A DNA stretch of 64,000 nucleotides from Planctomycetota bacterium (GTDB taxonomy: Bacteria > Planctomycetota > J058): contig JAMLIC010000006.1 in NCBI GenBank assembly GCA_023954375.1, positions 82,972 to 146,971 of the forward strand. Direction: 5' to 3'. Shown piece after piece: positions 2,352-64,000 of the stretch; the stretch's first letter is position 1; each line of letters opens with the position of its first letter. A model generated the notes under the pieces. That model saw nothing but the letters and a program-made list of their open reading frames with translations. It made no database searches and was not told where the DNA came from. The position numbers and the translations under genes were made by a program.

Positions 2352-2683
2352 ACGTCGGGGACTGGGTGGAGGCGGAGGTCTTCGGCGTCGCCGCTTACGG
2401 CATCCACCTGCGCTCGGCGGACGGCTTCGAGATCCTCGTCCACACCTACGATGTGTCGTGGACGGACCAGTTCTCTCCGCGGGAGTACTGCACGGTCGGG
2501 GACGTCCTCCGCGTGAAGATCATCAGGTTCAGCACGGACGGCACATGTGCCCTGGGGTGGGTGCCGCCCCCGGGCAGGGATCCGAGGAGCGTCGACCATG
2601 AGCGATCGGGCGCGCGGCGCCTCGACCCCGGGATCAAGGGCGACCCCGATCCTGCGGGGGACGGGCGATCGGGCCGAGCCTGA
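2348..2683 (+). CDS. S1-like RNA-binding domain protein
   Basis: GDWVEAEVFGVAAYGIHL...ILVHTYDVSW...GDVLRVKIIRFSTDG matches the S1/OB-fold pattern. Translationally coupled to the upstream ORF. Confidence 0.5.
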   Translation: MNVGDWVEAEVFGVAAYGIHLRSADGFEILVHTYDVSWTDQFSPREYCTVGDVLRVKIIRFSTDGTCALGWVPPPGRDPRSVDHERSGARRLDPGIKGDPDPAGDGRSGRA

Positions 2684-2726
2684 CGCGGTCGGGGTGGCGC
2701 GCGGCGAACGCGCCGCGGCCTGCTGG

Positions 2727-5700
2727 CTAGCGCCGCAAGTACTCGTCCGTACTTAGCACCTCCACCCACACCTCCCCCCACGCGGCCCCGCGCCCGAGCG
2801 CGTCGGCGTGCCGGCGCACCTCGGCCTGCGTCGCCGGCCGCCCGAGGAAGCGCTCATGGGCAAGCCGCACCCAGCGCTCGTGGTGCTCGCGCGAGCGCAG
2901 GAGCGTCAGCGCCACGGCCACCGGAGACGCGCCGCGGCGCAGGGCGGCGGCGTAGGTCGCGAGGCCGCTCGCGTCCGCCGGCCGGCCGAGCAGGTCGAGG
3001 TAGGCCTGCTCGACCCACGGCTCGACGAGCGGGAACGCACCACGGTACTCGTCGGAGGCGGCGAGGCCGGCGGTGAGGTCCTCCCAGCGCGCGCCCGCCT
3101 GCAGGCCGCGCACGGCCGCGTCGCGCCCGCCCGGGTCGGCGGAGCGGCGCAGCAGCCGGGCGTACTCGCCCTCGACCCAGCGCTCGAGGTGCTCGGTCGA
3201 GCACACGAACGTCCGCGCCACCTCCGCGCGCGAGGACCCGCGGCGGAGCGTCTGCACGTGGGCGTCGAGCCCGCCGGGGTCGGCGGGGCGGCCGAGCACG
3301 TCGTGGTAGAGGCGCTCGACGAACCTTCGCTCCGGGTCGACGGCTGGCCCGGGTCCCGGCCCCGGCCCCGGTCCAGGTGGGGGCGGCGTCGCCCCGCCGG
3401 GGATCCCCGTCCCCCCCGGCGCGGGCGGCGCCGCGTCGCCCGGGCCCCGCGGGAGCGACGCCGGGGGCGTGACGTCGAGCGTGGTCCCCGTGAGCGCGCG
3501 CAGGAACGCGACCAGGTCGGCCTTCTCGCCCGGCGTGAGCCCGAGCGGCCGCAGCTCCGGATCGCGCCCCTCCTCGCGCACGCCGCCGCGGTCGTAGAGG
3601 TCGACCACCTCCTCGAGCGTCCCCGCGCTGCCGTCGTGCAGGTAGGGCGCGGTGAGCGCCACGTCGCGGAGCGTCGGCGTCTTGAACCGGCCCAGGTCGC
3701 CGGCGCGACCGGTCGCGGCGCGCCGGCCCTCGTCGCGCCGCGCCGTGAAGCCCACGTCGTGGAAGGCCTCGTCGGTGAAGTTCGAGCCGACGTGGCAGGC
3801 CGTGCAGCGGGCCTTCGTCCGGAAGAGGACCTGCCCGCGCGCCTCCGACGGGTCGAGCGCGCCGAGGTCGGCCCGCGACGCGCCCGAGACGAGCGAGCGC
3901 TGGAACGCGGCCAGCGCCGCCTCCAGGCGCTCGGCCGTCGGGTCGCCGCCGAAGGCGCGGGCGAACAGCGCCCGGTAGTCGCCGCTGGCGCGCAGGAGGT
4001 CGAGCGCCTGCGCCACGGGGAGCGCCTGCTCGTGCGGGTGCTCGAGCGGCACGAGCGCCTGCGCCTCGAGCGAGGCGCTGCGGCCGTCCCAGAACTGCCG
4101 CGTCGAGAAGGCGCGGTTGATCAGCGCGGGCGTGTGCAGAGGCAGCGGCCCCGCCCGCCCGGGCGTGCGCGCGCGGCCGTCGGCGTAGCCCTTCGCCGGG
4201 TCGTGGCACGAGGCGCACGACACGGCGCCGTCGCTCGACAGGCGCGGGTCGAAGAACAGGAGCTTGCCCAGCGCGGCCTGCTCGCGCGTGAAGCCGCCCG
4301 CGGGGACCCGCAGGTCGCGCGCGTCGAGGCCCCGGGGCAGCGGGTCGGGGAGGCGCCCGGTCAGGTCGGGCCCGGGAGTCGCCACGAACGCCGACGCCGC
4401 CACCTCGTCGGGGCGGCGCGCGACGCGCGAGACCTTCACCTCGTCGAGCATCACCACCGCCTCGCCGGCCCCGACGGACGGCGCGCGGGGCCGCAGCCCC
4501 GCCGGGCCGAGCAGCAGGTCGGCCGTCGTCGCGTCGACCTGCCCCGGGCCGAAGACCTGCTCGCTCCGCAGCGCCCCGCCCACGTGGACGCGCAGCCTGC
4601 CGCTCGCCGCCTCGTAGGTGACGGCCACGTGGGCCCACGCGCCGACCGGCAGCGCCGGGTCGACCGGGCCCGAGCGGCGCCCCGCCCCGCCGCTGACCAC
4701 GGTCGCCTGCACGCGCCCGTCCTCCTCGAGGATCAGGTCGAACGCGCCGGCGCGATGGGCCAGGAAGACGAAGCGGTTCTCGCCGTCGCGGTCGAGGTCG
4801 ACCAGGCGCTTGACCCACAGGTCGAGCGTCAGCGCCTCGCGGACCTCGCCCAGGCTCGCCGACGCGCGCACGCGCACGGCCCCGCCCTGGGGGAAGTAGA
4901 GCGCCTGCCCGACGACGCCGCGGTTCTCGTCCACGCGCTCGTATTCCTGCGGGAAGCGCGCCCCTTCGAGGAGGCCCGTGTTCAGTCGTCCCGACGTGTC
5001 GGGGGTGCGCGTCGGGTCGAGCGTGGCCTCCTTCGTCACCAGCTCGTTCATGCGCAGGACGAGCACGTGGTCGCCGTCCTCGTGGTCCTCGAAGGACACC
5101 TCACCGTAGTCGGCCGTGTTGCTGCCGAAGAGCGGGTAGACCGGCCGACCGGCCGTGCAGGGCAGCGGCGCGCCGGGGACGTCGGGGAAGGGGCGCCAGA
5201 AGCCGGGCGCCGCGCCGGGCGAGGAGAAGAACAGCCGCACGCTGGCCTCACGGTCGGGGTTGAGCGGGCCGTCGATGTGCCGCAGCGTCCAGCCGGTCCA
5301 GCGGCCGATCACGGAGAGCCCGCCGCGCCGGGCCCGGTCGCGGCCGTCGACGCCGGCGACGGTCGCCGTGTGGAACAGCTCGGTGCCGTCGTGGCTGATC
5401 CACGGGTAGGCGCCGCGGTAGAGCTCGCCCGGCCCGAAGGCCCGGCCGTCCTGCGCGCGCAGGGGGCGCTTCGCCAGCGGGGCGCGCTCGTGGAGCGGCA
5501 GCCCGGCCACGAGCGCGGCCCGGTCGCGGTGGTAGAGGTCGCTGATCGACCGCGGCGGCGACCAGCCGGTCGCGGCCCCCGGCGTCTGCGTGAACGAGTA
5601 CATGAGCACGTCGATCTGCCCGTCGTTGCGCGGATGCCCCTGCCACACGAGCAGGTGGCCGTCGAAGGTCACCGTCGGCTCGATCCCGCGCAGCGGCTGG

Positions 5701-51230: not shown

Positions 51231-51944
51231 TCAGACCACGTGCGACCACGCGAACGCCGGGCAGCCGATCGCGACGACCTCGACCTCGCCCGTGTAGACC
51301 CGCGCCCCGGGCGCGGCGAAGCCGACCTTCTCGTGCACGAAGGTCACCGTGCGAACGGCCCGCGCGGCGGCGCCCAGCGGGACGCCCCGGTCGGAGTCGA
51401 GGCCCGAGGGGATGTCGACCGCGACCCTCGGCCGCGGGTCCTGATCGAGGGCGCGGACGAGGCCGAGGCCCGGCTCGCGCAGGGCGCCCTCGAGGCCCGT
51501 CCCGTAGAGCGCGTCGACGACCAGCGCCGCCCCGGGCCGCGCCGCGAGCCAGGCGGCCAGGGCGGCCCCGTCGGGCGCCTCGTCGACCTGCTCCCCCGCG
51601 CGCTCGAGCACGGCGAGGTTCACGCCGGCGTCGGTCCCGCGGTCGACCAGCGCGAGGCGGCCGGCGAGGGCCACGCGCGGCCGCCAGCCGAGGAGCAGGA
51701 GGTGGCGCGCGAGGACGAAGCCGTCGCCGCCGTTGTTGCCGCGTCCGCAGACGACCAGGACCTCGGCCCCCGGCGGCGCGCCCCGCGCGCGCAGGTCGCG
51801 GTCGACGGCCGCGGTCAGGCCGCGGCCGGCGTTCTCCATGAGGACGAGGCCCGGGAGGCCCAGGTCCTCGATCGCCCGGCGATCGACCTCGCGCACCTCG
51901 GCGCGGGAGAGAGGGCGCGGTGGCCGGGCGAAGGTCGACTCCAT
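51231..51944 (-). CDS. nnrE: NAD(P)H-hydrate epimerase (YjeF N-terminal domain)
   Basis: AEVREVDRRAIEDLGLPGLVLMENAGRG...VLVVCGRGNNGGDGFVLARHL is the YjeF_N signature. ATG at 51944. The track ORF is extended upstream. Confidence 0.75.
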   Translation of the reverse strand: MESTFARPPRPLSRAEVREVDRRAIEDLGLPGLVLMENAGRGLTAAVDRDLRARGAPPGAEVLVVCGRGNNGGDGFVLARHLLLLGWRPRVALAGRLALVDRGTDAGVNLAVLERAGEQVDEAPDGAALAAWLAARPGAALVVDALYGTGLEGALREPGLGLVRALDQDPRPRVAVDIPSGLDSDRGVPLGAAARAVRTVTFVHEKVGFAAPGARVYTGEVEVVAIGCPAFAWSHVV

Positions 51945-52182
51945 GGCGCCCGAAGATACGGCCCTCGTGGCCGGCGACCAGGACACCTGGCGGGGACGCG
52001 CGTGGCCCCTCGGTTCCGGCGCCTCGGCCGGGCCGAGGCCCCCTGGCCACGCGGCCGCCGCCGCCGCGGGACGCCCGGGGCGCCCGAGGAGCGCGCGGCC
52101 GGCCGCCGCCTGGGCGCCGCCGTCGACTCCCTTGCAGGGCACGTCTATCATGTGCCGCCAACGGCAGGAGCGCGCGACACGC

Positions 52183-54942
52183 ATGAAGATCTCCGTCATC
52201 GGCACCGGCTACGTCGGCCTCGTCACCGGGACCTGCTTCGCCGACAACGGCAACGACGTCTGGTGCGTCGACATCGACGAGAAGAAGATCGAGCGGCTGA
52301 ACCGCGGCGAGGTCCCGATCTACGAGCCGGGCCTCGACCAGATGATCGAGCGCAACGTCCAGGGCGAGCGCCTCCGGTTCACGACCGACCTGGCCGACGC
52401 CGTCCGCCGCACGCGGATCGTGTTCCTCTGCGTCGGGACCCCGTCCGCGCCCGACGGCTCGCCCGACATGCGCTACGTCTACAAGGCCGCCGAGGACGTG
52501 GCCCGCGCCATGGAGGAGCACACGATCCTCGTCCTCAAGTCGACCGTCCCCGTGGGCACGGCCGCCGAGGTGCGCAAGCGCGTGGCGGCCGCCACGAAGC
52601 TCCCCTTCGACGTCGTCAGCAACCCCGAGTTCCTCAAGGAGGGCCACGCGGTCGACGACTTCCTCAAGCCCGACCGCGTCGTGATCGGCACCGACGACCC
52701 ACGCGTGGCCCTGATCATGAAGGAGCTCTACGACCCCTTCGTGCGCACGGGCAACCCGATCCTCGTCATGGACAACGTCTCGGCCGAGCTGACGAAGTAC
52801 GGCGCCAACGCGCTGCTCGCCGCGCGCATCTCGTTCATGAACGAGCTGGCCAACCTCGCCGACCGCGTCGGCGCCGACATCAACCAGGTGCGGCAGGGGA
52901 TGGGCAGCGATGCGCGGATCGGACACTCGTTCCTGTTCCCGGGCATCGGCTACGGGGGCAGCTGCCTCCTCGGCCGCGAGACCGTCCTGGTGCGCCAGGG
53001 CGGGCGGGTCCGGCTGACCCGCTTCGACCGCCTGTTCGCGGCGCTCGCGCCCGGGGCGGGCGATGAGGCCGGCGCGGTCGCGCCGGAGGGGCTCGAGGTC
53101 CTCTCCTGGGAGCCGTCGACGGGCGCGCCGTCGTGGCGGCCGGTCTCCGCCGTCACCCGCCGCCCCTTCGAGGGCGAGGCGCTCGAGGTGCGCACGAAGA
53201 TGGGCCGCCGGGTCCGCTGCACGCCCGACCACCCGTTCGTCGCCTCCGACGCGGCGCACGGTCCGCGGCGCGTCGTGCTCGCCGCCGAGCTGACCGCCGA
53301 CCACTGGCTGCCCCTGGCGCAGGGGCGCGAGCAGGGCGAGGCGCCGCGCCGCGTCGACCTGCTCGGGAGCCTCGAGCGGCTCGGCGTGCGCCAGGACGAG
53401 GTGATCGTCCGCTTGGCCCCCGCGGTCGCCGCGGCGCTGGACGTCCGCGTCGTCCGGGCCGCGATCGAGCGCCTCGGCGAGCACGCCTCGCCCGCATCGC
53501 GCGCCCACGACATCGTCCGCAACGGCGCGCTCCGCCTCCACGAGGCGCGCGCGCTGGGGGTGGCGCTCGAGGGCGCCGCGCTCGGGACGGCGAAGAACGG
53601 CACCTACGTGCCGACCGGCCTCGACCTCGACGAGGCGTTCTGGCGCGTCGTCGGGCTCTACATCGCCGAGGGTCACTGCTCGGTCGACGGGCGTCGGCAC
53701 CGGCTCTCCTGGTCGTTCCACCCGACCGACGAGGACGCCCTCGTCGAGGAGGTGGCGGCCTTCTGGGAGCGGCTGGGCGTCAAGGCGACGGTCCTCCGGC
53801 GGTCCACCACGACCCAGGTGACCGTCTCGTCGCGCCTCCTGGCGACCTGGTGGCTGGGTGAGCTCGGCCTCGGCGCCGACTGCTACGCGCAGCGCGTCCC
53901 CGACCTCGTCTGGGAGCAGCCCGAGGCCCACCGCCGGGCGCTGCTCGCCGGGGTCTGGCAGGGCGACGGGTCGTGGTCGCGCGTCAACGGCGGCCCGAGC
54001 GTCGTGCTCGAGCACGGCACGGCCAGCCCGGAGCTGGCGGACGGCCTCCTCCGGCTCCTCGGGGACCTCGGCATCGTGGCGCGGACCAAGGTGGGCCGCA
54101 CCGCGAAGTCGACCGTCGACACGCACTGGCTCGTGGTCTCCGGCGCCGACCAGGTCGAGCGGCTGGTCGACCTGGTGAAGCCGGCCCAGCGCGCCGACCT
54201 CGTCGGGAGCGTCGCGCGCCAGCTGAAGCGCATCGCCCCAACGGGGTACCGGCGCTTCGAGGGGGACGCGTCGGCCTGGGTCCGCGTGACCGAGGTCCGT
54301 CGCCGCCCCTACCAGGGCTGGGTCTACTCGCTCGAGGTCCCCGGGCCCGAGACGTTCGTGACGACGGGCGGCCTCGTCGTCCACAACTGCTTCCCCAAGG
54401 ACGTGGACGCCCTCGGTTACACCGGCAAGAACGCCGGCATGGACCTCAAGCTGCTCGCCGCCACCAACGAGGTGAACCGCACGCAGAAGCGGGTCCTGTT
54501 CGACAAGATCAGCGCGCGCTTCGGCGGCGACCTGAAGGGCAAGCGGATCGCGATCTGGGGCCTGGCGTTCAAGCCGCGCACCGACGACATGCGCGAGGCG
54601 CCCTCGCTGACCGTGATCGGCCTCCTGCTCGAGGCCGGCGCCACCGTCCACGCCTACGACCCGGCGGCGACCGAGACGACCCGCGCCGTGCTGGGCGACA
54701 GGATCCAGTACGCGCAGAAGCAGTACCGGGCGCTCGAGGGCGCCGACGCGCTGGCGATCTGCACCGAGTGGAACGAGTTCCGCCGCCCCGACTGGGAGCG
54801 GATCAGGGCGTCGCTCCGGCAGCCGATCATCTTCGACGGCCGCAACATCTTCGAGCCGGCGCGCGTCGAGGAGGCGGGCTTCGAGTACTACGGCATCGGC
54901 CGCGGGCGCAAGCTCGAGCTGTCGCCGCGGGCGAGGGGCTGA
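52183..54942 (+). CDS. ugd: UDP-glucose 6-dehydrogenase interrupted by an in-frame intein (precursor 919 aa)
   Basis: N-extein MKISVIGTGYVGLVTG...GIGYGGS, then the intein, then C-extein CFPKDVDALGYTG...KPRTDDMREAPS... Splicing would restore the catalytic motif GGSCFPKD. All Ugd signature segments are present in the exteins. Confidence 0.9.
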   Translation: MKISVIGTGYVGLVTGTCFADNGNDVWCVDIDEKKIERLNRGEVPIYEPGLDQMIERNVQGERLRFTTDLADAVRRTRIVFLCVGTPSAPDGSPDMRYVYKAAEDVARAMEEHTILVLKSTVPVGTAAEVRKRVAAATKLPFDVVSNPEFLKEGHAVDDFLKPDRVVIGTDDPRVALIMKELYDPFVRTGNPILVMDNVSAELTKYGANALLAARISFMNELANLADRVGADINQVRQGMGSDARIGHSFLFPGIGYGGSCLLGRETVLVRQGGRVRLTRFDRLFAALAPGAGDEAGAVAPEGLEVLSWEPSTGAPSWRPVSAVTRRPFEGEALEVRTKMGRRVRCTPDHPFVASDAAHGPRRVVLAAELTADHWLPLAQGREQGEAPRRVDLLGSLERLGVRQDEVIVRLAPAVAAALDVRVVRAAIERLGEHASPASRAHDIVRNGALRLHEARALGVALEGAALGTAKNGTYVPTGLDLDEAFWRVVGLYIAEGHCSVDGRRHRLSWSFHPTDEDALVEEVAAFWERLGVKATVLRRSTTTQVTVSSRLLATWWLGELGLGADCYAQRVPDLVWEQPEAHRRALLAGVWQGDGSWSRVNGGPSVVLEHGTASPELADGLLRLLGDLGIVARTKVGRTAKSTVDTHWLVVSGADQVERLVDLVKPAQRADLVGSVARQLKRIAPTGYRRFEGDASAWVRVTEVRRRPYQGWVYSLEVPGPETFVTTGGLVVHNCFPKDVDALGYTGKNAGMDLKLLAATNEVNRTQKRVLFDKISARFGGDLKGKRIAIWGLAFKPRTDDMREAPSLTVIGLLLEAGATVHAYDPAATETTRAVLGDRIQYAQKQYRALEGADALAICTEWNEFRRPDWERIRASLRQPIIFDGRNIFEPARVEEAGFEYYGIGRGRKLELSPRARG
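52963..54387 (+). mobile_element. Intein (475 aa) with LAGLIDADG homing-endonuclease domain inside ugd
   Basis: Begins with Cys1 (CLLGRETVLV). Ends with the canonical His-Asn (GGLVVHN) followed by +1 Cys (CFPKD). Block B-like TPDHPF. Two LAGLIDADG motifs: VGLYIAEGHCS and LLAGVWQGDGSWS. Confidence 0.85.
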
Positions 54943-57012: not shown

Positions 57013-57639
57013 TCAGCGCTCGGCGACGAGCGCCGCGCGGACGGGCGAGGCATCGGCGCCCTCGAGGCGGAGCGGCAGGGCGACGAGCGTGTAGCGCCCC
57101 GGCGGCGCCTGCTCGAGGACGAGCCCCTCGAGGTTGGCGATGCCGTGGCGCAGCAGCGCCTGGTGCGTGAGGAGCGCCCGGTCGTCGTACGGGTCCACCG
57201 AGGGGGTGTCGATCCCGACGAGCACCGCGCCGCGCGCGGCCAGGTGCTCGATCAGCTCCGGCGAGAGGCTGGCGAAGTCCGCGTTCCAGGCCTCGGGGTC
57301 GGGGAAGGTGCCCGTCCGCAGGAGGAGCCGCGGGGTCGCGACCTCGTCGGGCAGGTGCTCGGGCAGGACGCGCGCGCCGCGGGCCACGTCGACCCACATG
57401 ACCTGGCAGGGCCCGTAGTAGAGCTCGAGGGGGCGCGCGGCGATGTCGGGCGCGCCGGCGGCGTAGTGCGAGGGCGCGTCGGCGTGCGCGCCCAGGTGCA
57501 CGGTCGTCTCGACCGCGCTCAGGTCGATGTTCGCCCCCTGCGCGATGCTCAGCGACGCGCGGCGCCGGTAGGGCACGTCGTCCGGCCACACCGCGATGCG
57601 CTCGCTCACGAGCGGGGAGATGTCGATCAGCCTCGGCAT
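57013..57639 (-). CDS. Putative cyclase / kynurenine formamidase family protein
   Basis: HLGAHADAPSH matches the cyclase-family metal motif HxGTHxDxPxH. 208 aa. ATG at 57639. Confidence 0.65.
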   Translation of the reverse strand: MPRLIDISPLVSERIAVWPDDVPYRRRASLSIAQGANIDLSAVETTVHLGAHADAPSHYAAGAPDIAARPLELYYGPCQVMWVDVARGARVLPEHLPDEVATPRLLLRTGTFPDPEAWNADFASLSPELIEHLAARGAVLVGIDTPSVDPYDDRALLTHQALLRHGIANLEGLVLEQAPPGRYTLVALPLRLEGADASPVRAALVAER

Positions 57640-57656
57640 GCCGCCACGATACGCGG

Positions 57657-58876
57657 TCAGGCCTCCCGCAGGAGCCGCGGCGCGGCGAGCGCCGCCCAGG
57701 CCGCGGTCGCCAGGAGGAACGCGGCCGCGGAGAGCCCGAGCCACAGCCACAGGCGGGCGGGGTCGAAGCTGACGGCGAGCCGCAGCGCCAGCGCGGCGAC
57801 GAGCAGGAGGCCGAGCGCGGCCACCTGCCAGGGGCGCCCGAGGAGGCGGCGCTCGTCGCCGGCGTGGGCCAGGGTCACGTGGACGGCGACCGAGAGCGCC
57901 AGCGCGGCGAAGCCGCCGAGGAAGAGCACGTGCAGGGCGCCCGTGCGCTGGGCCGGGAAGGCCGCGGCGAGGAGCAGCCCGACCGGGACGCACCAGGCGC
58001 CCAGCCACACGAGCCAGCGATGCAGGCCCGGCAGGGTCGGCCGGCGGGCGAGGCCCGCGGCGCCGACGAGGACGACGAGCGCGACGAGGCCGCGCACGCC
58101 GAGGCCGGCGCGCGCGTCCACGTACTCCTCCACGACGAAGCTCCCGGCGAGGAGCAGCGCCGCCAGGAGGTGCGAGGCGAGCGCCCGGCGGTCGCGCGGG
58201 CCGGCGTCGGGTGGCGCGGTCGCGCGCGTGATGAGCGGGATGACCATGCTCCCGACGCCCAGGATCAGGCCCACGAACATGCCCTGGACGAGGAGGCCCT
58301 TGCCGACGGTGTGCAGGGGGCGCCACTCGGGGCCGAGCGCGCGGAGCGCCATGAGGAGCGAGCCGGCCAGGCCCATGAGGAACGAGAGCGGCACCCACAC
58401 GAACGCGACGGGCGGCCGCCGCCGGGCCGCCGCCCCGCCGCGCAGGCGGCGGACGACGAACCCGACCAGCGTGGCGACGAGGACGAGCCAGGCGACCTGC
58501 GACCAGGCGAACCGCTCGAACACGGCGGCGATCGTGGTGAGGGTCGGCGCGAGGGCCGCCACGACGACGACGCCCGCCGAGGCCGGCGCGCTGCCCGTCC
58601 GGCGCGGGATGGCCGTGAGCAGGAAGCCGGCCGCGAAGCACATCATGAAGCCCTGGACCTGGGCGATCGCGTGGTCGGCCGACGAGAACGTCCCCACACC
58701 GGCCGTGGCCAGCAGCAGCCACTTGGCCACGCCGACCCAGCCCAGGACCACGCCGAGGGGGAACAGGAGCCGGTACGGCTCGCGGCGCCACAGCGGGGCG
58801 TCGTCGGTGAGCGGCGGAGGGACGAGGTCGTGGCCGGCGCCGACCGGCCCCTCGCAGCTCGCCTCCTCGGGGATCA
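57657..58876 (-). CDS. nnrS: NnrS-family haem-copper membrane protein
   Basis: About 12 TM helices. N-terminal PLWRREPYRLLFPLG. HAIAQVQGFMMCFAAGFLLTAIPRRTG corresponds to the NnrS HAHEMVFGF...GFLLTAVPNWTG signature. Confidence 0.6.
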
Positions 58877-59131
58877 CCTGGGTCGGGCTGGGCACGGGTC
58901 CTCCGGGGGACCCTCCTCGCAAGCCGGGGGCCGGGCGAGCGGCGCGCAGGTGCAAGCGGCGCGTCGCACGGGCGTGACCGGGTCACGCGCGCGTGACTCT
59001 CGAGGGGCCTCACCACGGCGGACACGGAGGAGCGCCCAGGGGTGTTCGTCCGTGCCCTCCGTGCCCCCCGTGGTGATCCTGGTCGGGCTTCAACGTCGAT
59101 TCTGGCGGGAGCCAGGGTCGGCGTTGCAGCC

Positions 59132-59350
59132 TGTCCTCGAAGCCCTTCCTCGCAGACGGCCGAGCCGCCTCCGAGCACACCTCACCGCGCCTTCGCAGCA
59201 GGAGCGTCAGGCGAGCCACCCCACGCGGCGCTGCCGCGGCCAAAGCCGCGATCACACCAGGGCCTGTCCTCGAACCCGTCTTCGCAGACGGCCGAGCCGC
59301 CTCCGAGCACACCTCACCGCGCTTCCGCAGCAGGAGCCTCAGGCGAGGCC
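59132..59350. repeat. Two direct copies of an ~86-nt unit (59132-59217, 59265-59350; period 133 nt)
   Basis: Unit is tgtcctcgaa(g/c)cc..tcgcagacggccgagccgcctccgagcacacctcaccgcgc(c)ttc(c)gcagcaggagc(g/c)tcaggcgag, about 93% identical between copies. The spacer carries gccgcgatcacac, which also occurs at 59474 at the 3' end of the RidA-domain gene. Confidence 0.7.
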
Positions 59351-59387
59351 GAGGAGGGCGAGGCGATGCGGCGCGAAGGCGAGGGAC

Positions 59388-59445
59388 GGGGCCCCCGGCC
59401 CCCCCCCCCCCCCCGGGGGGGGGGGGCCCCCCCCCGCCGCCCCCG
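59388..59445. repeat. Extreme homopolymer palindrome C16-G12-C9
   Basis: ggggcccccggCCCCCCCCCCCCCCCCGGGGGGGGGGGGCCCCCCCCCgccgccccc lies about 40 nt downstream of the stop of the minus-strand AmnA-RidA gene. Confidence 0.8.
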
Positions 59446-59485
59446 ACGCACCGCAGCGCCCCGCCATCCTCGGCCGCAGCCGCGA

Positions 59486-60901
59486 TCACACTAGCGCGAT
59501 CACCTTCAGCTCCACCGCGATCGGCGTGGGCAGGGCCGAGATCGCCAGCGTCGTGCGCGTCGCGCCGACCGGGGCGAAGTACTCCTTGTAGACCGCGTTG
59601 TAGGCGGCGAAGTCGCGGTCCATGTCGATCAGGAAGGCGGTCACGTCGATGACCTTGTCGAGCGACGAGCCTGCCGCCTCGAGGATCGCCTTCACGTTCT
59701 CGATCGTGGCCCGGGTCTGCGCCGCGGCGTCGTAGGCCTGCGGCCGCCCCTGCGCGTCGCGCACCGGCCCGCCGGGGATCGCGTTCGTCCCCGGCTGACG
59801 GGGGCCCACGCCCGAGAGGTAGAGGAGGTCGCCCACGCGGCGCGCGTGCGGGTAGGCGCCGACCGGCGCGGGCGCGCCGCTGGCCATGACGACCTCGCCC
59901 CCCGGCGCGGACGAGGGCGCGGACGCCGGCGCGGCCGCAGGCGCGCCACCGGCGCGCGGCGCGGGGTCCGCCGGGGCGGGCGCGCCGGGGGCCACGCCCG
60001 CCGAGAGGACGTTGCGGTCGCCCCGGAAGACCTCGACGTCCTCCTCGTCGAACTCCTTGCTCGCCGCCGGCCGCGTGCTCGGGGCCAGGCCGACGAGCGC
60101 GGCGCCGGTGCCCCACACAGGCTGGTACTCGAACACCGTCCCCTCGTAGTCGTTGTGCTGGCCGAGGAACGACGCCAGCCACCAGACCGCCTTGAGCTTG
60201 CTGTCGGCGTTGGCCTGGGCGCTGAACTCGCGCGCGAGCTGAGCCACGTCCTCGAGGCGCCCCTCGGCCAGGAGCTCCAGGAGCTTCCGGTTCCACTCGT
60301 CGTCCTTGAGCGAGGAGATCCGGTCCTCGCGCGGGTCGATCTCGTGGGTGAACAGGCGGTTCGAGAGCGCCGTCACGGCGACGGCCACCGCGCGCCGCCC
60401 GCCCCGCTCGACCGCGTCGCGGGCGGCCTTGCCGAGGACGAGCGTCTCGGCGCGGTCCGCGTACATGTTGCACGAGACGATCGTCGCCGGCAGCCGGTTG
60501 TCCGGGTTCAGGAGCTTCAGCGCCACGATCGAGCCGGTGTCGATCGGGAAGCCCTTGTAGGCGACCGTGCGCGCGTGGAGCCCGCGGGCGCGGGCGCAGG
60601 CCTCGTACTCCTTCGCGAAGCCGGCGTCGATCCGGAACCGGTAGGGCAGGTCGCCGAGGTCGTGCCACTCCGGGTCGACGTGCACCCACTCGGGCTCGGG
60701 GTCGGCCTGGAGCTGATGACCGATCACGCTCGGCCACTGCGTGCTGTAGAGCACGAGCAGGTCGGCGTCCGTCGCCTCGAGCTCGGCGCGCACCCGGTCG
60801 TAGCCGGCGCGCAGCTTCTGCCAGGCGGGCGAGCGCTCGGGCGCCAGGAGCGGGTGCGGCATGCCCGCGACGATGTAGCCGCGCACGACCTTGCCGCTCA
60901 C
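59486..60901 (-). CDS. amnA: 2-aminophenol 1,6-dioxygenase alpha-subunit-like protein (LigB family) fused in frame to a C-terminal RidA/YjgF-family domain (putative 2-aminomuconate deaminase)
   Basis: GTG start overlaps the AmnB stop (GTGA). The AmnA-like region carries LVLYSTQW, GFPIDTGS, EIDPREDRI and DDEWNRKLLEL. An Ala/Pro linker (GAPAPADPAPRAGGAPAAAPASAPSSAPGG) follows. A complete RidA domain comes next (MASGAPAPVGAYPHARRVGDLLYLSGVGP...TRTTLAISALPTPIAVELKVIA). There is no stop between the domains. The RidA part has its own internal ATG at 59887. Confidence 0.75.
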   Translation of the reverse strand: MSGKVVRGYIVAGMPHPLLAPERSPAWQKLRAGYDRVRAELEATDADLLVLYSTQWPSVIGHQLQADPEPEWVHVDPEWHDLGDLPYRFRIDAGFAKEYEACARARGLHARTVAYKGFPIDTGSIVALKLLNPDNRLPATIVSCNMYADRAETLVLGKAARDAVERGGRRAVAVAVTALSNRLFTHEIDPREDRISSLKDDEWNRKLLELLAEGRLEDVAQLAREFSAQANADSKLKAVWWLASFLGQHNDYEGTVFEYQPVWGTGAALVGLAPSTRPAASKEFDEEDVEVFRGDRNVLSAGVAPGAPAPADPAPRAGGAPAAAPASAPSSAPGGEVVMASGAPAPVGAYPHARRVGDLLYLSGVGPRQPGTNAIPGGPVRDAQGRPQAYDAAAQTRATIENVKAILEAAGSSLDKVIDVTAFLIDMDRDFAAYNAVYKEYFAPVGATRTTLAISALPTPIAVELKVIALV

Positions 60902-61818
60902 GCCCGCCTCCCCGCGGCGCCGGCCCCGACCTTGGCGGAGCCCGGGTCCCACTCGACGACCGCGTTGCCCGTGCCGATGACGCTGCCGTAGGCGTGGACC
61001 TCGGCCGGGTACTCCGGGAAGTCGAGCGCCGCCATGAGCCACGTCAGGCTGCCCGCCTTGGCCTCGCTGACGGCCTGCTCGATGAAGTCGGGCAGCTCGT
61101 CCACGAGCTGCCGCGTCTTGCCCTTGCGCATGAGGTCCAGCACGCGCATGTCCCAGAGGTACTGGCCGTGGTGGTAGACGTGCTCGTGCGTCATGTCCTC
61201 GGGGACCGCGGGCTCCTCCGTGAAGTGGCGGTGGCTGAGCGAGTTGCTCGCCAGGAGCACGGCGCGCTTGCCGCTCCGCTCGACGGCGCGGCGCGTGGCC
61301 TGGCCCAGCGCGATCATCTCCGCCTGGCCGACCTCGTCGCTGTAGTAGAAGAACGCGCCGTTCGAGCTGATCCCGACGATCGGCTTGTCCCAGGCCGGGT
61401 TGGTCAGGTGGCAGGAGATGATCGTCCCGTAGTCGACGCGGAAGTTCGGGTTCCGCATCATCTTCGTCACGAGGCCGGCCGCCTTCGCCTCGTCGTGGAT
61501 CGCCTCGGCCAGACCCACGTCGACGTCGAGCGTGTAGTGGAACCGGAACAGGTTCGGGAAGATCGGGTCGACCGACAGGCTCTCGAAGTGCGGCACGCCG
61601 AGGAAGTGGTGGCCGACGTGCGTGCGCCAGTGCGGCGAGTGGACGATCAGGACGTCGTGGTCCTTCTTCGCCAGGTTGCGCCGCAGCCGCTCGTAGCCCC
61701 AGCGCAGCTCCTCCCAGCCGCACTCGGCGCGCGGCTCGTTCTGCGGCGGGTTCTCCGCGTAGACGAGGTGCGGGGGGTGCGGCGCCAGGGCGCCCAGGAC
61801 GATCTCACCGCGGGCCAT
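60898..61818 (-). CDS. amnB: 2-aminophenol 1,6-dioxygenase beta subunit (LigB-type extradiol dioxygenase, catalytic)
   Basis: MARGEIVLGALAPHPPHLVYAENPPQNEP...LIVHSPHW...HHFLGVP...VDPIFPNLFR...GLVTKMMRNPNFRVDYGTI is nearly collinear with AmnB. Confidence 0.85.
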   Translation of the reverse strand: MARGEIVLGALAPHPPHLVYAENPPQNEPRAECGWEELRWGYERLRRNLAKKDHDVLIVHSPHWRTHVGHHFLGVPHFESLSVDPIFPNLFRFHYTLDVDVGLAEAIHDEAKAAGLVTKMMRNPNFRVDYGTIISCHLTNPAWDKPIVGISSNGAFFYYSDEVGQAEMIALGQATRRAVERSGKRAVLLASNSLSHRHFTEEPAVPEDMTHEHVYHHGQYLWDMRVLDLMRKGKTRQLVDELPDFIEQAVSEAKAGSLTWLMAALDFPEYPAEVHAYGSVIGTGNAVVEWDPGSAKVGAGAAGRRA

Positions 61819-61833
61819 CGGACCCTCCTCCGC

Positions 61834-63288
61834 TCACAGCTTCACGCACACGTTGCGCGCCTCGCTGAAGAACTCGAGCGAGTAGGCCCCGCCCTCGCGG
61901 CCGACGCCGCTGTCCTTCACGCCGCCGAACGGCGTGCGCAGGTCGCGCAGGAGCCAGGTGTTCACCCACACCATCCCCGTGTCCAGCGCGGCCGAGACGC
62001 GATGCGCGCGGGACAGGTCGCGCGTCCAAACCGAGGCCGAGAGGCCGTAGCGGACGCCGTTGGCCAGGGCCAGCGCCTCGGCCTCCGTGTCGAACGGGTG
62101 CACGGTGACGACCGGCCCGAAGATCTCCTCGGTCGCCGTGCGGCAGGTCGCCGGCAGGCCGGCGACGACCGCCGGCCCGAGGAACGCGCCCCGGTCGAGC
62201 GGCGCCGGCAACGCCGGCCGCTCGCCGCCGCAGAGCACGCGGCCGCCCTCCTCGCGCGCCAGCCGCAGGTAGCCCTCGACCTTGTCGCGATGCGCGAGCG
62301 AGATCAGGGCGCCCAGGTCGGTCGCGGGGTCCCTCGGGTCGCCGAGGCGCAGGGCCTTCACGCGGGCGACGAAGGCCTCGAGGAAGCGGTCGTGCACGCT
62401 CCGCTCGACGAGCAGGCGCGAGCCGCAGAGGCACACCTGGCCCTGGTTGGTGAAGCCGGCGCGGACGGCGCCCTCGACGGCCTGGTCGAGGTCGGCGTCG
62501 GCGAAGACGAGCGTCGGGTTCTTGCCGCCGAGCTCGAGCGAGAGCTTCTTGAACACGGGCGCGGCCGTCGCGGCGACCCGCGCGCCCGTGGCCGTGCCGC
62601 CCGTGAACGAGATCGCCGACACGCCCGGGTGCTCGACGAGCGCCTGGCCCGCCTCGGGGCCGAGCCCGTGGACGAGGTTGAACGCGCCCGGCGGGAGGCC
62701 CACCTCGGCCGTGATCTCCGCCAGCGCCGAGGCGGTCAGCGGGGTCAGCTCGCTCGGCTTGGCCACGACGGCGTTGCCCATGCCGAGGGCCGGGGCGACC
62801 TTCCAGCTCAGCAGGTAGAGCGGCAGGTTCCAGGGGGAGATCAGCCCGACGACGCCCAGCGGGCGCCGCAGCGTGTAGTTCAGCGCCGGCCCGGGCGGGC
62901 CGTCGGTCAGGTGGCAGTCGGTCCGGTCGTGGCGGATCGCGCCGGCGAAGAACCTGAAGTTGGCGACCGCGCGCGGGATGTCGATCGTCGCCGCCAGCCG
63001 CAGCGGCTTGCCCGTGTCGAGGCTCTCCAGGGCGGCGAGGTCATCCAGCCTCGCCTCGATCCGGTCGGCGATCGCGTCGAGCAGGCGCGCGCGCTCCTCG
63101 GTCGACGTCCTGCCCCAGGCGCCGTCGAGCGCGGCCCGCGCCGCCTCGACCGCGTCGGCCACGTCGGCCGCGCCGCCGCGCGGGACCCGGGCCACGACCT
63201 CGCCCGTGGCCGGGGCCACGTCGTCCATGTGCTCTCCCGAGCGCGGCGGCTGCTCGCGGCCGGCGATGAACTGGCTGAGCGTCCTCAC
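61834..63288 (-). CDS. amnC: NAD+-dependent aldehyde dehydrogenase, 2-aminomuconic/2-hydroxymuconic semialdehyde dehydrogenase-like
   Basis: ALDH signatures are present: the catalytic Glu motif LELGGKNP, the catalytic Cys in FTNQGQVCLCGSRLLV, and the GxxxxG NAD site. It lies upstream in the same operon as amnB and amnA. Confidence 0.8.
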   Translation of the reverse strand: MRTLSQFIAGREQPPRSGEHMDDVAPATGEVVARVPRGGAADVADAVEAARAALDGAWGRTSTEERARLLDAIADRIEARLDDLAALESLDTGKPLRLAATIDIPRAVANFRFFAGAIRHDRTDCHLTDGPPGPALNYTLRRPLGVVGLISPWNLPLYLLSWKVAPALGMGNAVVAKPSELTPLTASALAEITAEVGLPPGAFNLVHGLGPEAGQALVEHPGVSAISFTGGTATGARVAATAAPVFKKLSLELGGKNPTLVFADADLDQAVEGAVRAGFTNQGQVCLCGSRLLVERSVHDRFLEAFVARVKALRLGDPRDPATDLGALISLAHRDKVEGYLRLAREEGGRVLCGGERPALPAPLDRGAFLGPAVVAGLPATCRTATEEIFGPVVTVHPFDTEAEALALANGVRYGLSASVWTRDLSRAHRVSAALDTGMVWVNTWLLRDLRTPFGGVKDSGVGREGGAYSLEFFSEARNVCVKL

Positions 63289-63872
63289 GTCGCGCGCCCC
63301 TCCTCCTCCGCCCGGCGGACCAGGCGGTCGTAGCCCTCGGCCGGCTCGCCCATGCTCCGCAGCAGGCGCACGACCTCGTCGCGGTCGGGGACGGCGCCGT
63401 GCTTGAGCAGCTCGACGACGTCGGCCTCGTCCTTGAGCCGGCCCACCTTGACCTTCAGGGCCACGAGGGCCGGCAGCGCCAGGACCGGCAGCTCGAGCGC
63501 CGGCCCCGCCGTCACCCGCGCGGGCCGCTTCACGTAGGGGATCGTGCAGCGCGGGAGCTTGACGAGGTCCACCTCGACCTTCGTGGTCGGATGGATGAAG
63601 CGAGCGCCCTGGACCGGCCGGAACCCCGCCCGGGCCAGCCGCGCGGCCGCCTCACGCACGGGCACGACCACCCCGATGTCCACGTCCTCCGTGAACCGCG
63701 GGTAGCCGGAGAAGAACACGGCCTGACCGCCGATCAGCGCGTGGTCGAGGCCCTGCAAGGCCTCCTCGACGCGCCGCAGCGTCTCCAGGAACTCCGCCCC
63801 GAGCGTGTCCGACATGACGAACCTCGCCAGCCGGCCGACGAGGTCCGCCTGTCTCCGCTTGCTCGCACGCAC
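63285..63872 (-). CDS. Nucleotidyltransferase-fold protein (AbiEii/DUF1814-like?)
   Basis: LIGGQAVFFSGYPRFTEDVDIGVV fits the pol-beta-type NTase motif GGxA...R.T.DxD. The stop overlaps the ALDH start (ATGA). The region upstream of it (toward the window end) is only partly visible at the window edge. Confidence 0.35.
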   Translation of the reverse strand: MRASKRRQADLVGRLARFVMSDTLGAEFLETLRRVEEALQGLDHALIGGQAVFFSGYPRFTEDVDIGVVVPVREAAARLARAGFRPVQGARFIHPTTKVEVDLVKLPRCTIPYVKRPARVTAGPALELPVLALPALVALKVKVGRLKDEADVVELLKHGAVPDRDEVVRLLRSMGEPAEGYDRLVRRAEEEGRAT

Positions 63873-64000
63873 GCCTGGAGGCTACCTCCGGGCCGTGGCC
63901 GGGCAACGGGCGGCCCCGCGACCGAACACGACCCTAACGCATACCGCCGACATCCCCGGGCTCACGGCCCGCGGGGCTCCTCGAAGTACGGGTACTCGTA

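Follow-up and report, generated by a model that had tools for sequence, protein, structure and literature searches.

Why should the non-catalytic subunit of a ring-cleaving dioxygenase carry a deaminase at its C-terminus, and from where would the substrate of such an enzyme come? The question is raised by three adjacent genes near the end of a 64,000-nt window (the whole stretch analysed here) of contig JAMLIC010000006.1, positions 82,972 to 146,971 of the forward strand, from the Planctomycetota assembly GCA_023954375.1. The genes encode an aldehyde dehydrogenase (ALDH), the beta subunit of a LigB-type dioxygenase and an alpha subunit fused to a RidA/YjgF domain, in that order on the minus strand, and gene calls and Pfam domains agree in this with the original prediction, which had been made from the sequence alone. 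We consider it probable that the three genes carry out the first three steps of 2-aminophenol meta-cleavage, that the fusion serves to assemble the enzymes, and that the 2-aminophenol is derived from tryptophan via kynurenine. Because many long open reading frames (ORFs) in this region of approximately 75% G+C are spurious, genes were identified by homology, which gave the following features.

61834..63288, minus strand: NAD-dependent aldehyde dehydrogenase of the 2-aminomuconate-6-semialdehyde dehydrogenase type, 484 aa (Pfam Aldedh, E=2.8e-170)
60898..61818, minus strand: predicted catalytic beta subunit of a 2-aminophenol 1,6-dioxygenase, AmnB/CnbCb type, 306 aa (PF02900, LigB, E=1.8e-23)
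59486..60901, minus strand: alpha::RidA fusion protein, 471 aa (LigB and Ribonuc_L-PSP (RidA) Pfam domains)
60068..60901, minus strand: AmnA-type non-catalytic alpha domain, fusion residues 1-278 (GTG start overlapping the beta stop)
60005..60067, minus strand: conserved acidic tail, fusion residues 279-299, ASKEFDEEDVEVFRGDRNVLS (from alignment conservation)
59897..60004, minus strand: low-complexity Ala/Pro/Gly linker, fusion residues 300-335 (predicted disorder)
59486..59896, minus strand: RidA/YjgF domain of AmnE type, fusion residues 336-471 and stop (PF01042, E=4.4e-23)

There is no stop codon in the window gene between the LigB match (fusion residues 21-268, E=6e-12) and the Ribonuc_L-PSP match (residues 343-470, E=4e-23), and the alpha gene does run through an Ala/Pro linker into the RidA domain as first read. 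The coupling proposed for the two dioxygenase genes is equally visible in the sequence, in that the fusion gene begins at a GTG which shares bases with the beta-gene TGA (GTGA) and follows a GGGAGG Shine-Dalgarno motif, and the same 4-nt overlap is seen in the called genes of relatives at loci L081-L085. Between the ALDH stop (61834-61836) and the beta ATG (61818) lie 15 nt, GCGGAGGAGGGTCCG, which include GGAGG; from the final base of the stop codon to the start-codon A the distance is 16 positions, the figure given originally.

Beyond the gene and domain identities, we infer which substrates are used, in which order the steps run, how the enzymes oligomerise and from where the 2-aminophenol comes. 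In the proposed pathway, the beta subunit with the inactive alpha domain would open 2-aminophenol to 2-aminomuconic 6-semialdehyde, the ALDH would oxidise this unstable semialdehyde to 2-aminomuconate, and the tethered RidA domain would hydrolyse 2-aminomuconate to 2-oxohex-3-enedioate (4-oxalocrotonate) and ammonia. The alpha subunit would act as the carrier, its acidic tail and flexible linker tethering the deaminase to the dioxygenase.

Among solved structures, the beta subunit matched CnbCb (3vsg_B, E=8.9e-122) and AmnB (8ihg_A, E=1.2e-121), with gap-free identities of 58-59% over 296-297 residues and retention of the PHPPH, HSPHW and SEAK motifs. Its residues His14, His63 and Glu252 align with identical residues in both proteins, and we take these to be the iron ligands, presumably His13, His62 and Glu251 in the numbering of CnbCb. 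The best solved matches of the alpha domain (residues 1-270) were all alpha subunits (7txy_A, E=6.3e-57; 3vsg_A, E=1.8e-49; 8ihg_B, E=1.3e-44). The window alpha and beta sequences are 32% identical to each other, and in their alignment Gly13, Gln55 and Asp233 of alpha occupy the positions of beta His14, His63 and Glu252; because the residues aligned with the beta His/His/Glu have been lost, the alpha domain appears to be the usual inactive paralogue. The AmnB and AmnA assignments made earlier are borne out by these matches and identities, which support identification of the beta subunit and alpha domain as a 2-aminophenol 1,6-dioxygenase (AmnAB/CnbC), a class III LigB-type extradiol enzyme for which ring cleavage is the predicted activity.

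The ALDH had been assigned to the second step as a 2-aminomuconate semialdehyde dehydrogenase (AMSDH), and its best solved matches agree, being AmnC (7bzv, 526 bits) and the AMSDH of P. fluorescens (4npi/4i1w, 519 bits), as against no more than 441 bits for other ALDHs. The catalytic Cys/Glu motifs ELGGKN and GQVCLC are kept, as are the arginines of DIPR and LRDLR, two candidate carboxylate-binding residues which, mapped from chain offsets, would correspond to the published Arg120 and Arg464 of AMSDH. Against TIGR03216, the model for 2-hydroxymuconic semialdehyde dehydrogenase, the window ALDH scored 634.4 bits, the cut-off being 693.25.

For the third step, the distinction between AmnE-type and generic RidA proteins matters because human RIDA, a generic member, does not accelerate the deamination of 2-aminomuconate, whereas dedicated deaminases do (2026 preprint, bioRxiv 10.64898/2026.06.05.730449). 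Compared on its own with all solved structures, the window RidA domain was closest to AmnE of Pseudomonas sp. AP-3 (6izh_A, 99.7 bits, 40% identity), the one validated deaminase in the comparison, with generic solved RidA proteins reaching at most 80.6 bits, approximately 19 bits less. An insertion of approximately 12 residues in loop Lp2 (relative to PH0854) is common to the window domain and AmnE and includes the Gly-Arg-Pro that holds AmnE Arg56, and the window domain has equivalents of AmnE Ser35-Gly36, Arg56, Met96, Arg117, Pro126 and Lys135. Of these, Arg56 and Met96 hold the AmnE hexamer together (PMC6742747), and Arg449 of the fusion, which aligns with the cleft residue Arg117, is invariant in 27 sequences. 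The domain is thus closer to AmnE than to generic RidA, in keeping with its original reading as a pathway-type deaminase, and its sequence supports assignment to the 2-aminomuconate deaminase type, with that activity predicted. At the level of these domain identities, AmnA type and AmnE type, the proposal that the first and third enzymes of the pathway reside on one polypeptide holds.

The alternative that survives best is that the RidA domain is a general deaminase of reactive enamines or imines, either protective or converting 2-aminomuconic semialdehyde to 2-hydroxymuconic semialdehyde before it can cyclise to picolinate, in which case the fused steps would be consecutive and the fusion mechanistically more sensible. 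The cleft residues common to RidA proteins are indeed conserved, including the Arg equivalent to RidA Arg105 and AmnE Arg117, the generic Rid model TIGR00004 matches at 90.4 bits, and the ALDH scores highly against the 2-hydroxymuconic semialdehyde dehydrogenase model as well. However, the TIGR00004 match is below its cut-off of 106.25 bits, the structural comparison prefers AmnE, whose specific Lp2 insertion is shared, and to our knowledge the characterised deaminases of the 2-aminophenol pathway act on 2-aminomuconate and not on the semialdehyde. A general deaminase is accordingly considered unlikely.

The genomic setting bears on where the 2-aminophenol would come from. A one-genome-per-species scan returned at least 599 matched stretches, at least 463 of them encoding a relative of the fusion, and 82 loci were examined, namely the best 80 of these genome loci, a contig locus (L081) and the window, with the operon mapped by placing reference proteins on all loci by tblastn and from the Pfam-annotated contigs of close relatives. 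The 80 genome loci all come from metagenome-assembled genomes, labelled as Planctomycetota, Holophagaceae and other Acidobacteriota, Myxococcota, Krumholzibacteriota/Latescibacterota, Bdellovibrionales and the archaeal Poseidoniales/Thermoplasmatota; the nearest relative (L001, Planctomycetota) is 89% identical to the window fusion and those from Poseidoniales/Thermoplasmatota are 55-62% identical. The conserved gene order is tryptophan 2,3-dioxygenase (TDO, in some loci), SDR, luciferase-like monooxygenase (LLM, approximately 410 aa), Asparaginase_II-like protein (approximately 375 aa), ALDH, AmnB, AmnA::RidA and KynB-type formamidase. Where at least 7 kb of upstream sequence is available (52 loci), the ALDH gene is found upstream in 48, the Asparaginase_II-like gene in 42, the LLM gene in 38, the SDR gene in 29 and the TDO gene in 12, and the formamidase gene lies downstream in 46 of the 58 loci with at least 3.5 kb on that side. 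In the window itself, the three genes are flanked by the following.

63962..64000, minus strand: end of an Asparaginase_II-like gene, last 12 codons and stop, translation YEYPYFEEPRGP (cut by the window end)
63285..63872, minus strand: AbiEii-like nucleotidyltransferase ORF, 195 aa (weak Pfam AbiEii match, E=7.9e-4, below cut-off)
58956..59485, no strand: intergenic region of approximately 530 nt (two copies of a repeat of approximately 132 nt and a G/C-homopolymer palindrome)
57657..58955, minus strand: NnrS-family membrane protein (Pfam NnrS, E=4.7e-34)
57013..57639, minus strand: KynB-type (cyclase-fold) kynurenine formamidase, 208 aa (TIGR03035 below cut-off; best solved relatives are kynurenine formamidases)

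The last 39 bases of the window match the C-terminus, ending in DRDRYEYPYFDDGFDPRGP and the stop, of the Asparaginase_II (PF06089) proteins of L081 and L082, two loci at 83-84% identity which carry the full operon set, and because these bases encode an asparaginase-like C-terminus the upstream module is present in this genome and cut by the window edge. The stop of the AbiEii-like ORF overlaps the ALDH start, again as GTGA. The slot that it occupies between the asparaginase-like gene and the ALDH holds a MazE-PIN pair in both L081 (6637-7283) and L082 (4962-5602); the ORF is probably a toxin-type insertion into the operon, and the slot looks like a recurrent insertion site. On the downstream side, a kynurenine-formamidase-like cyclase and NnrS had been reported as neighbours and both are present, but the formamidase is a conserved member of the operon and not a mere neighbour. 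Its best solved relatives are 4cob and 4cog (148-149 bits, compared with 68 bits for other cyclase-family hydrolases), it has the motif HLGAHADAPSH, and it scored 192.8 bits against TIGR03035, for which the cut-off is 223.05. The NnrS gene is a lineage-specific insertion between the fusion and formamidase genes, the same slot holding a 432-aa ORF in L001 and a DUF2490 gene, an unannotated 143-aa ORF or nothing in other relatives.

The Poseidoniales loci (L075, 1608-2417 and 11509-12933; also L073-L080) do not have the cyclase-type formamidase. At the head of their operon is the gene of a BD-FAE alpha/beta hydrolase with an HGGFW motif, which overlaps that of the SDR, and the formamidase seems here to have been replaced by a non-orthologous enzyme. 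These operons end in an amino-acid permease after the fusion gene, and panB and a small membrane-protein gene lie between the ALDH and AmnB genes.

An operon in which TDO and formamidase accompany three further enzymes points to a natural, tryptophan-linked pathway and not a xenobiotic one in the manner of amn/nbz, and from the gene content the 2-aminophenol is most likely to be derived from tryptophan via kynurenine and not from pollutants. TDO and formamidase would also fit a dioxygenase that cleaves 3-hydroxyanthranilate or 3-hydroxykynurenine, as a LigB-type stand-in for the cupin 3-hydroxyanthranilate dioxygenase of the kynurenine pathway, and 3-hydroxyanthranilate offers the same ortho-aminophenol cleavage geometry. 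This is distinctly unlikely, however, as kynurenine 3-monooxygenase, kynureninase, the cupin 3-hydroxyanthranilate dioxygenase and ACMS decarboxylase are all absent from the annotated conserved neighbour families of the 80 loci, the characterised enzymes to which the beta subunit is 58-59% identical act on 2-aminophenol, and the conserved LLM and asparaginase-like genes would be left without a role.

An ordinary xenobiotic operon of the amn/nbz/cnb kind, for aminophenol, nitrobenzene or chloronitrobenzene, in which the deaminase had become fused by chance, would account for the origin of the closest characterised relatives of all three enzymes, which come from those pathways. It is nevertheless highly improbable given that the order here is ALDH-B-A::D, compared with B-A-C-D for LB400 (PMC3790839), that neither lower-pathway genes nor hydroxylaminobenzene mutase or nitroreductase occur among the annotated conserved neighbour families, and that the operon is kept together with TDO and formamidase in marine Poseidoniales and many uncultured soil and water phyla.

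The fusion itself is widespread. In a search of 5.8 billion proteins, the 120 best clusters were 62-89% identical to the window protein and all contained both Pfam domains, with query coverage of approximately 97-100% in all but one; an identical copy of the window protein was not among public assemblies. In 78 of the 82 loci both domains are encoded in one uninterrupted frame, the linker varying in length with the frame kept, which answers both the proposed check of orthologous loci and that of read-through. The remaining four (L026, L029, L031 and L047), all Planctomycetota metagenome-assembled genomes, are interrupted by a stop behind the acidic tail, with RidA beginning at its own Met a few codons on, and because these related loci carry split genes, fission or fusion must have occurred in the course of evolution. 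That a sequencing or assembly error in the linker joined two genes would find some support in the very high GC content and low complexity of that stretch and in the separate genes of the four split loci. It is scarcely credible, however, and was rejected, since the single frame recurs in independent loci of many phyla and both prokaryotic domains and every one of the best clusters has two domains. The fusion is almost certainly genuine.

Fusions of pathway enzymes are common. The architecture seen here had been called unusual, which stands insofar as it is undescribed in the literature searched; it is not rare, however, being the standard form in at least several hundred uncultured species. 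No account of the fusion, of the operon or of a route from kynurenine to 2-aminophenol was found in the literature searched, which covers only a minority of subscription-journal papers, and a survey of the Rid family mentions domain fusions without alpha::RidA among them. Public annotations of the fusion proteins read "Rid family hydrolase", "reactive intermediate/imine deaminase" or "2-aminophenol 1,6-dioxygenase alpha subunit". Taken singly, the domains belong to known families, as diverged members; what is new is the covalent joining of alpha to deaminase with a conserved acidic tail, the range of uncultured bacteria and archaea in which this is seen, and its tryptophan-linked operon setting.

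What the fusion might do is suggested by the segment between its domains. The core of the acidic tail, KEFDEEDVEVFRGDRNVL (residues 281-299), follows the nearly invariant pattern EFDEEDVEVFxGDRxVL, with E283, F284, D285, E286, G294, R296, V298 and L299 nearly invariant across the 27 sequences. It is found in bacterial and archaeal loci and in all four split loci, and the solved AmnA/CnbCa chains, which end near residue 270-280, do not have it; it is possibly a docking peptide. The whole stretch between the domains, tail and linker together, ranges from 39 to 100 aa across loci, the linker being enriched in Ala, Pro and Gly (also Ser) and variable in length and sequence. In the AlphaFold model, residues 295-334 have pLDDT below 50 and lie between two mostly confident domains; within the alpha domain most 10-residue blocks exceed 80, with lower values at approximately 11-20, 71-80, 111-120 and 181-200.

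RidA proteins form trimers with their active sites at the subunit interfaces, and in AmnE two such trimers associate (PMC6742747). The dioxygenase dimerises through its beta subunits, with the alpha subunits outside and the iron site in beta (PMC10470539). Because trimeric RidA sites would be combined with a beta-joined dioxygenase dimer, complexes of at least three and plausibly at least six alpha-beta units are expected, and the fusion should build assemblies larger than alpha2beta2. Other candidate AmnA-like multi-domain proteins (P0141, P0142 and P0145) were seen in a library of representatives at 50% identity, where fusions produced by gene calling are possible; they include a branched-chain amino-acid ABC permease (BPD_transp_2) joined to AmnA and a permease-AmnA-BD-FAE alpha/beta hydrolase of 1034 aa. 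A scaffold role for the inactive alpha subunit is supported by the existence of these candidates.

Several observations weigh against the pathway and assembly proposed here. The purpose suggested originally for the fusion, channelling, is not borne out, because the fused activities are steps 1 and 3, which are not consecutive, and simple channelling therefore fails as an explanation. Nor is the covalent link between alpha and RidA essential, as the four split Planctomycetota loci have separate adjacent genes. TDO lies within 10 kb in a minority of loci only. Lower meta-cleavage genes are absent from the annotated conserved neighbour families of the 80 loci, and 4-oxalocrotonate decarboxylase, hydratase, aldolase and acetaldehyde dehydrogenase were found neither in the window at approximately 51.7-64 kb nor on the annotated contigs of relatives. 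The ALDH, formamidase and RidA domain all miss their NCBIfam cut-offs and are diverged members whose specificity could differ, and activities are predicted from sequence throughout. Of the possible purposes of the fusion, co-assembly is more plausible than channelling, perhaps with the ALDH docking on the acidic tail.

The operon may also hold the steps by which kynurenine would become 2-aminophenol. We tentatively propose, as a possibility that we hold to be less probable than the reading of the three genes as 2-aminophenol meta-cleavage enzymes, an undescribed, kynureninase-independent route from tryptophan to aspartate and 2-aminophenol. TDO and formamidase would give kynurenine; the LLM (in L082 at 2532-3782), as a flavin monooxygenase, would insert oxygen in Baeyer-Villiger fashion at the aryl ketone of kynurenine to give aspartate 2-aminophenyl ester, from which N4-(2-hydroxyphenyl)asparagine would readily arise by rearrangement; and the class-3-asparaginase-like hydrolase would release L-aspartate and 2-aminophenol. 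AmnB, AmnA::RidA and the ALDH would then lead to 2-oxohex-3-enedioate, a product which the SDR may reduce towards 2-oxoadipate. Compared with the class-3 asparaginases of Rhizobium etli, the asparaginase-like protein (L082, 3779-4915, and homologues) has conserved Ser-x-x-Lys, Ser80, Cys135, Cys189 and Lys263, and Glu replaces Lys138 (CSGEH in place of CSGKH); we take these residues to be those of the Ser-Lys tandems, the two zinc-site Cys and the zinc-binding Lys138 of the ReAV structures. The LLM matched no solved structure in a sequence search, and its NCBIfam match was partial, at 24 bits. Its AlphaFold model (pLDDT 86) matched RslO1, luciferases, a PKS OX domain and the type II Baeyer-Villiger 3,6-diketocamphane monooxygenase with similar E-values, and because many luciferase-like enzymes match about equally, the fold search is compatible with a Baeyer-Villiger reaction and does not discriminate. 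Were this route to operate, the joining of an enzyme of two-fold symmetry to one of three-fold symmetry may yield a self-assembling multi-enzyme body in which the acidic tail is a docking element.

Some further features of the window were noted. Between the NnrS and fusion genes, a repeat of approximately 132 nt is present at 59129-59347 as two copies 132-133 nt apart, 93-100% identical over 73 nt, and no further copies, as might mark a dispersed element, were found elsewhere in the window. At 59383-59435, approximately 50 nt 3' of the fusion stop, there is a G/C homopolymer palindrome with C and G runs of 12-15, which might form a strong hairpin or act as a terminator, or be a quirk of the assembly. 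At 51733-54942 on the plus strand, a UDP-glucose 6-dehydrogenase gene is split by an intein with a LAGLIDADG homing endonuclease, inserted at the catalytic-cysteine motif (GGS|C...VVHN|CFPKD), the ORF giving Pfam matches to Intein_splicing at residues 471-885 and LAGLIDADG_3 at residues 734-813.

If the preferred reading is correct, the enzymes of 2-aminophenol meta-cleavage, supposedly specific to pollutants, have a large natural reservoir, serving amino-acid catabolism, among uncultured prokaryotes of soil, fresh water and the sea, to which the abundant archaea of the Poseidoniales (Marine Group II) belong. The inactive alpha subunit would moreover gain a role as a scaffold, echoed by the candidate fusions of AmnA to an amino-acid permease and an esterase-type hydrolase. 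The co-occurrence of an LLM and an asparaginase-like hydrolase without kynureninase suggests a new branch of tryptophan degradation, to aspartate and 2-aminophenol, which is testable, all of the pathway enzymes being soluble bacterial-type proteins that can be made from synthetic genes.

Set beside the known dioxygenases AmnAB, CnbCaCb and that of the ARO system (8ihg, 3vsg-3vsj and 7txy), the window enzyme likewise consists of two paralogous LigB-fold subunits encoded by adjacent, coupled genes, of which beta keeps the residues aligned with the iron site and alpha does not. It differs in the approximately 200 additional C-terminal residues of alpha, comprising the acidic tail, the disordered linker and the RidA domain, in the position of the ALDH gene, which precedes the dioxygenase genes instead of following them, and in its hosts and neighbours, which are uncultured non-degrader lineages and tryptophan-catabolic genes. 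The ALDH resembles AmnC and AMSDH (7bzv and 4i1w/4npi) as its top full-length matches and in its catalytic motifs and DIPR/LRDLR arginines, and differs in its operon position and in falling below the equivalog cut-off of the related TIGR03216. Of the 2-aminomuconate deaminases (AMDs; AmnE 6izh, AmnD/NbaF, and those of B. cenocepacia and fungi), AmnE is the best solved relative of the RidA domain and has the same extended Lp2 loop. AmnE, however, is a free-standing protein of 142 residues that forms a hexamer, whereas the window domain is residues 336-471 of a 471-residue protein, whose RidA oligomerisation must fit, or drive, a larger complex.

At the level of the pathway, the operon shares with the bacterial kynurenine pathway (Kurnasov-type clusters and the B. 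cenocepacia cluster with AMD) the combination of TDO and KynB-type formamidase with an AMSDH-type ALDH and an AMD-type deaminase. It differs in having an LLM, a class-3-asparaginase-like hydrolase, an SDR and a LigB-type aminophenol dioxygenase instead of kynureninase, kynurenine monooxygenase, the cupin 3-hydroxyanthranilate dioxygenase and ACMS decarboxylase. The closest parallel to the proposed assembly is in Actinobacteria, which enclose the dioxygenase, ALDH and deaminase in the ARO bacterial microcompartment (PMC10470539). In both systems the early pathway enzymes would be physically co-localised, by a protein shell and targeting peptides in the one and by covalent fusion, with no shell genes seen, in the other, and the multi-enzyme body envisaged here may thus be a shell-free counterpart of the actinobacterial compartment.

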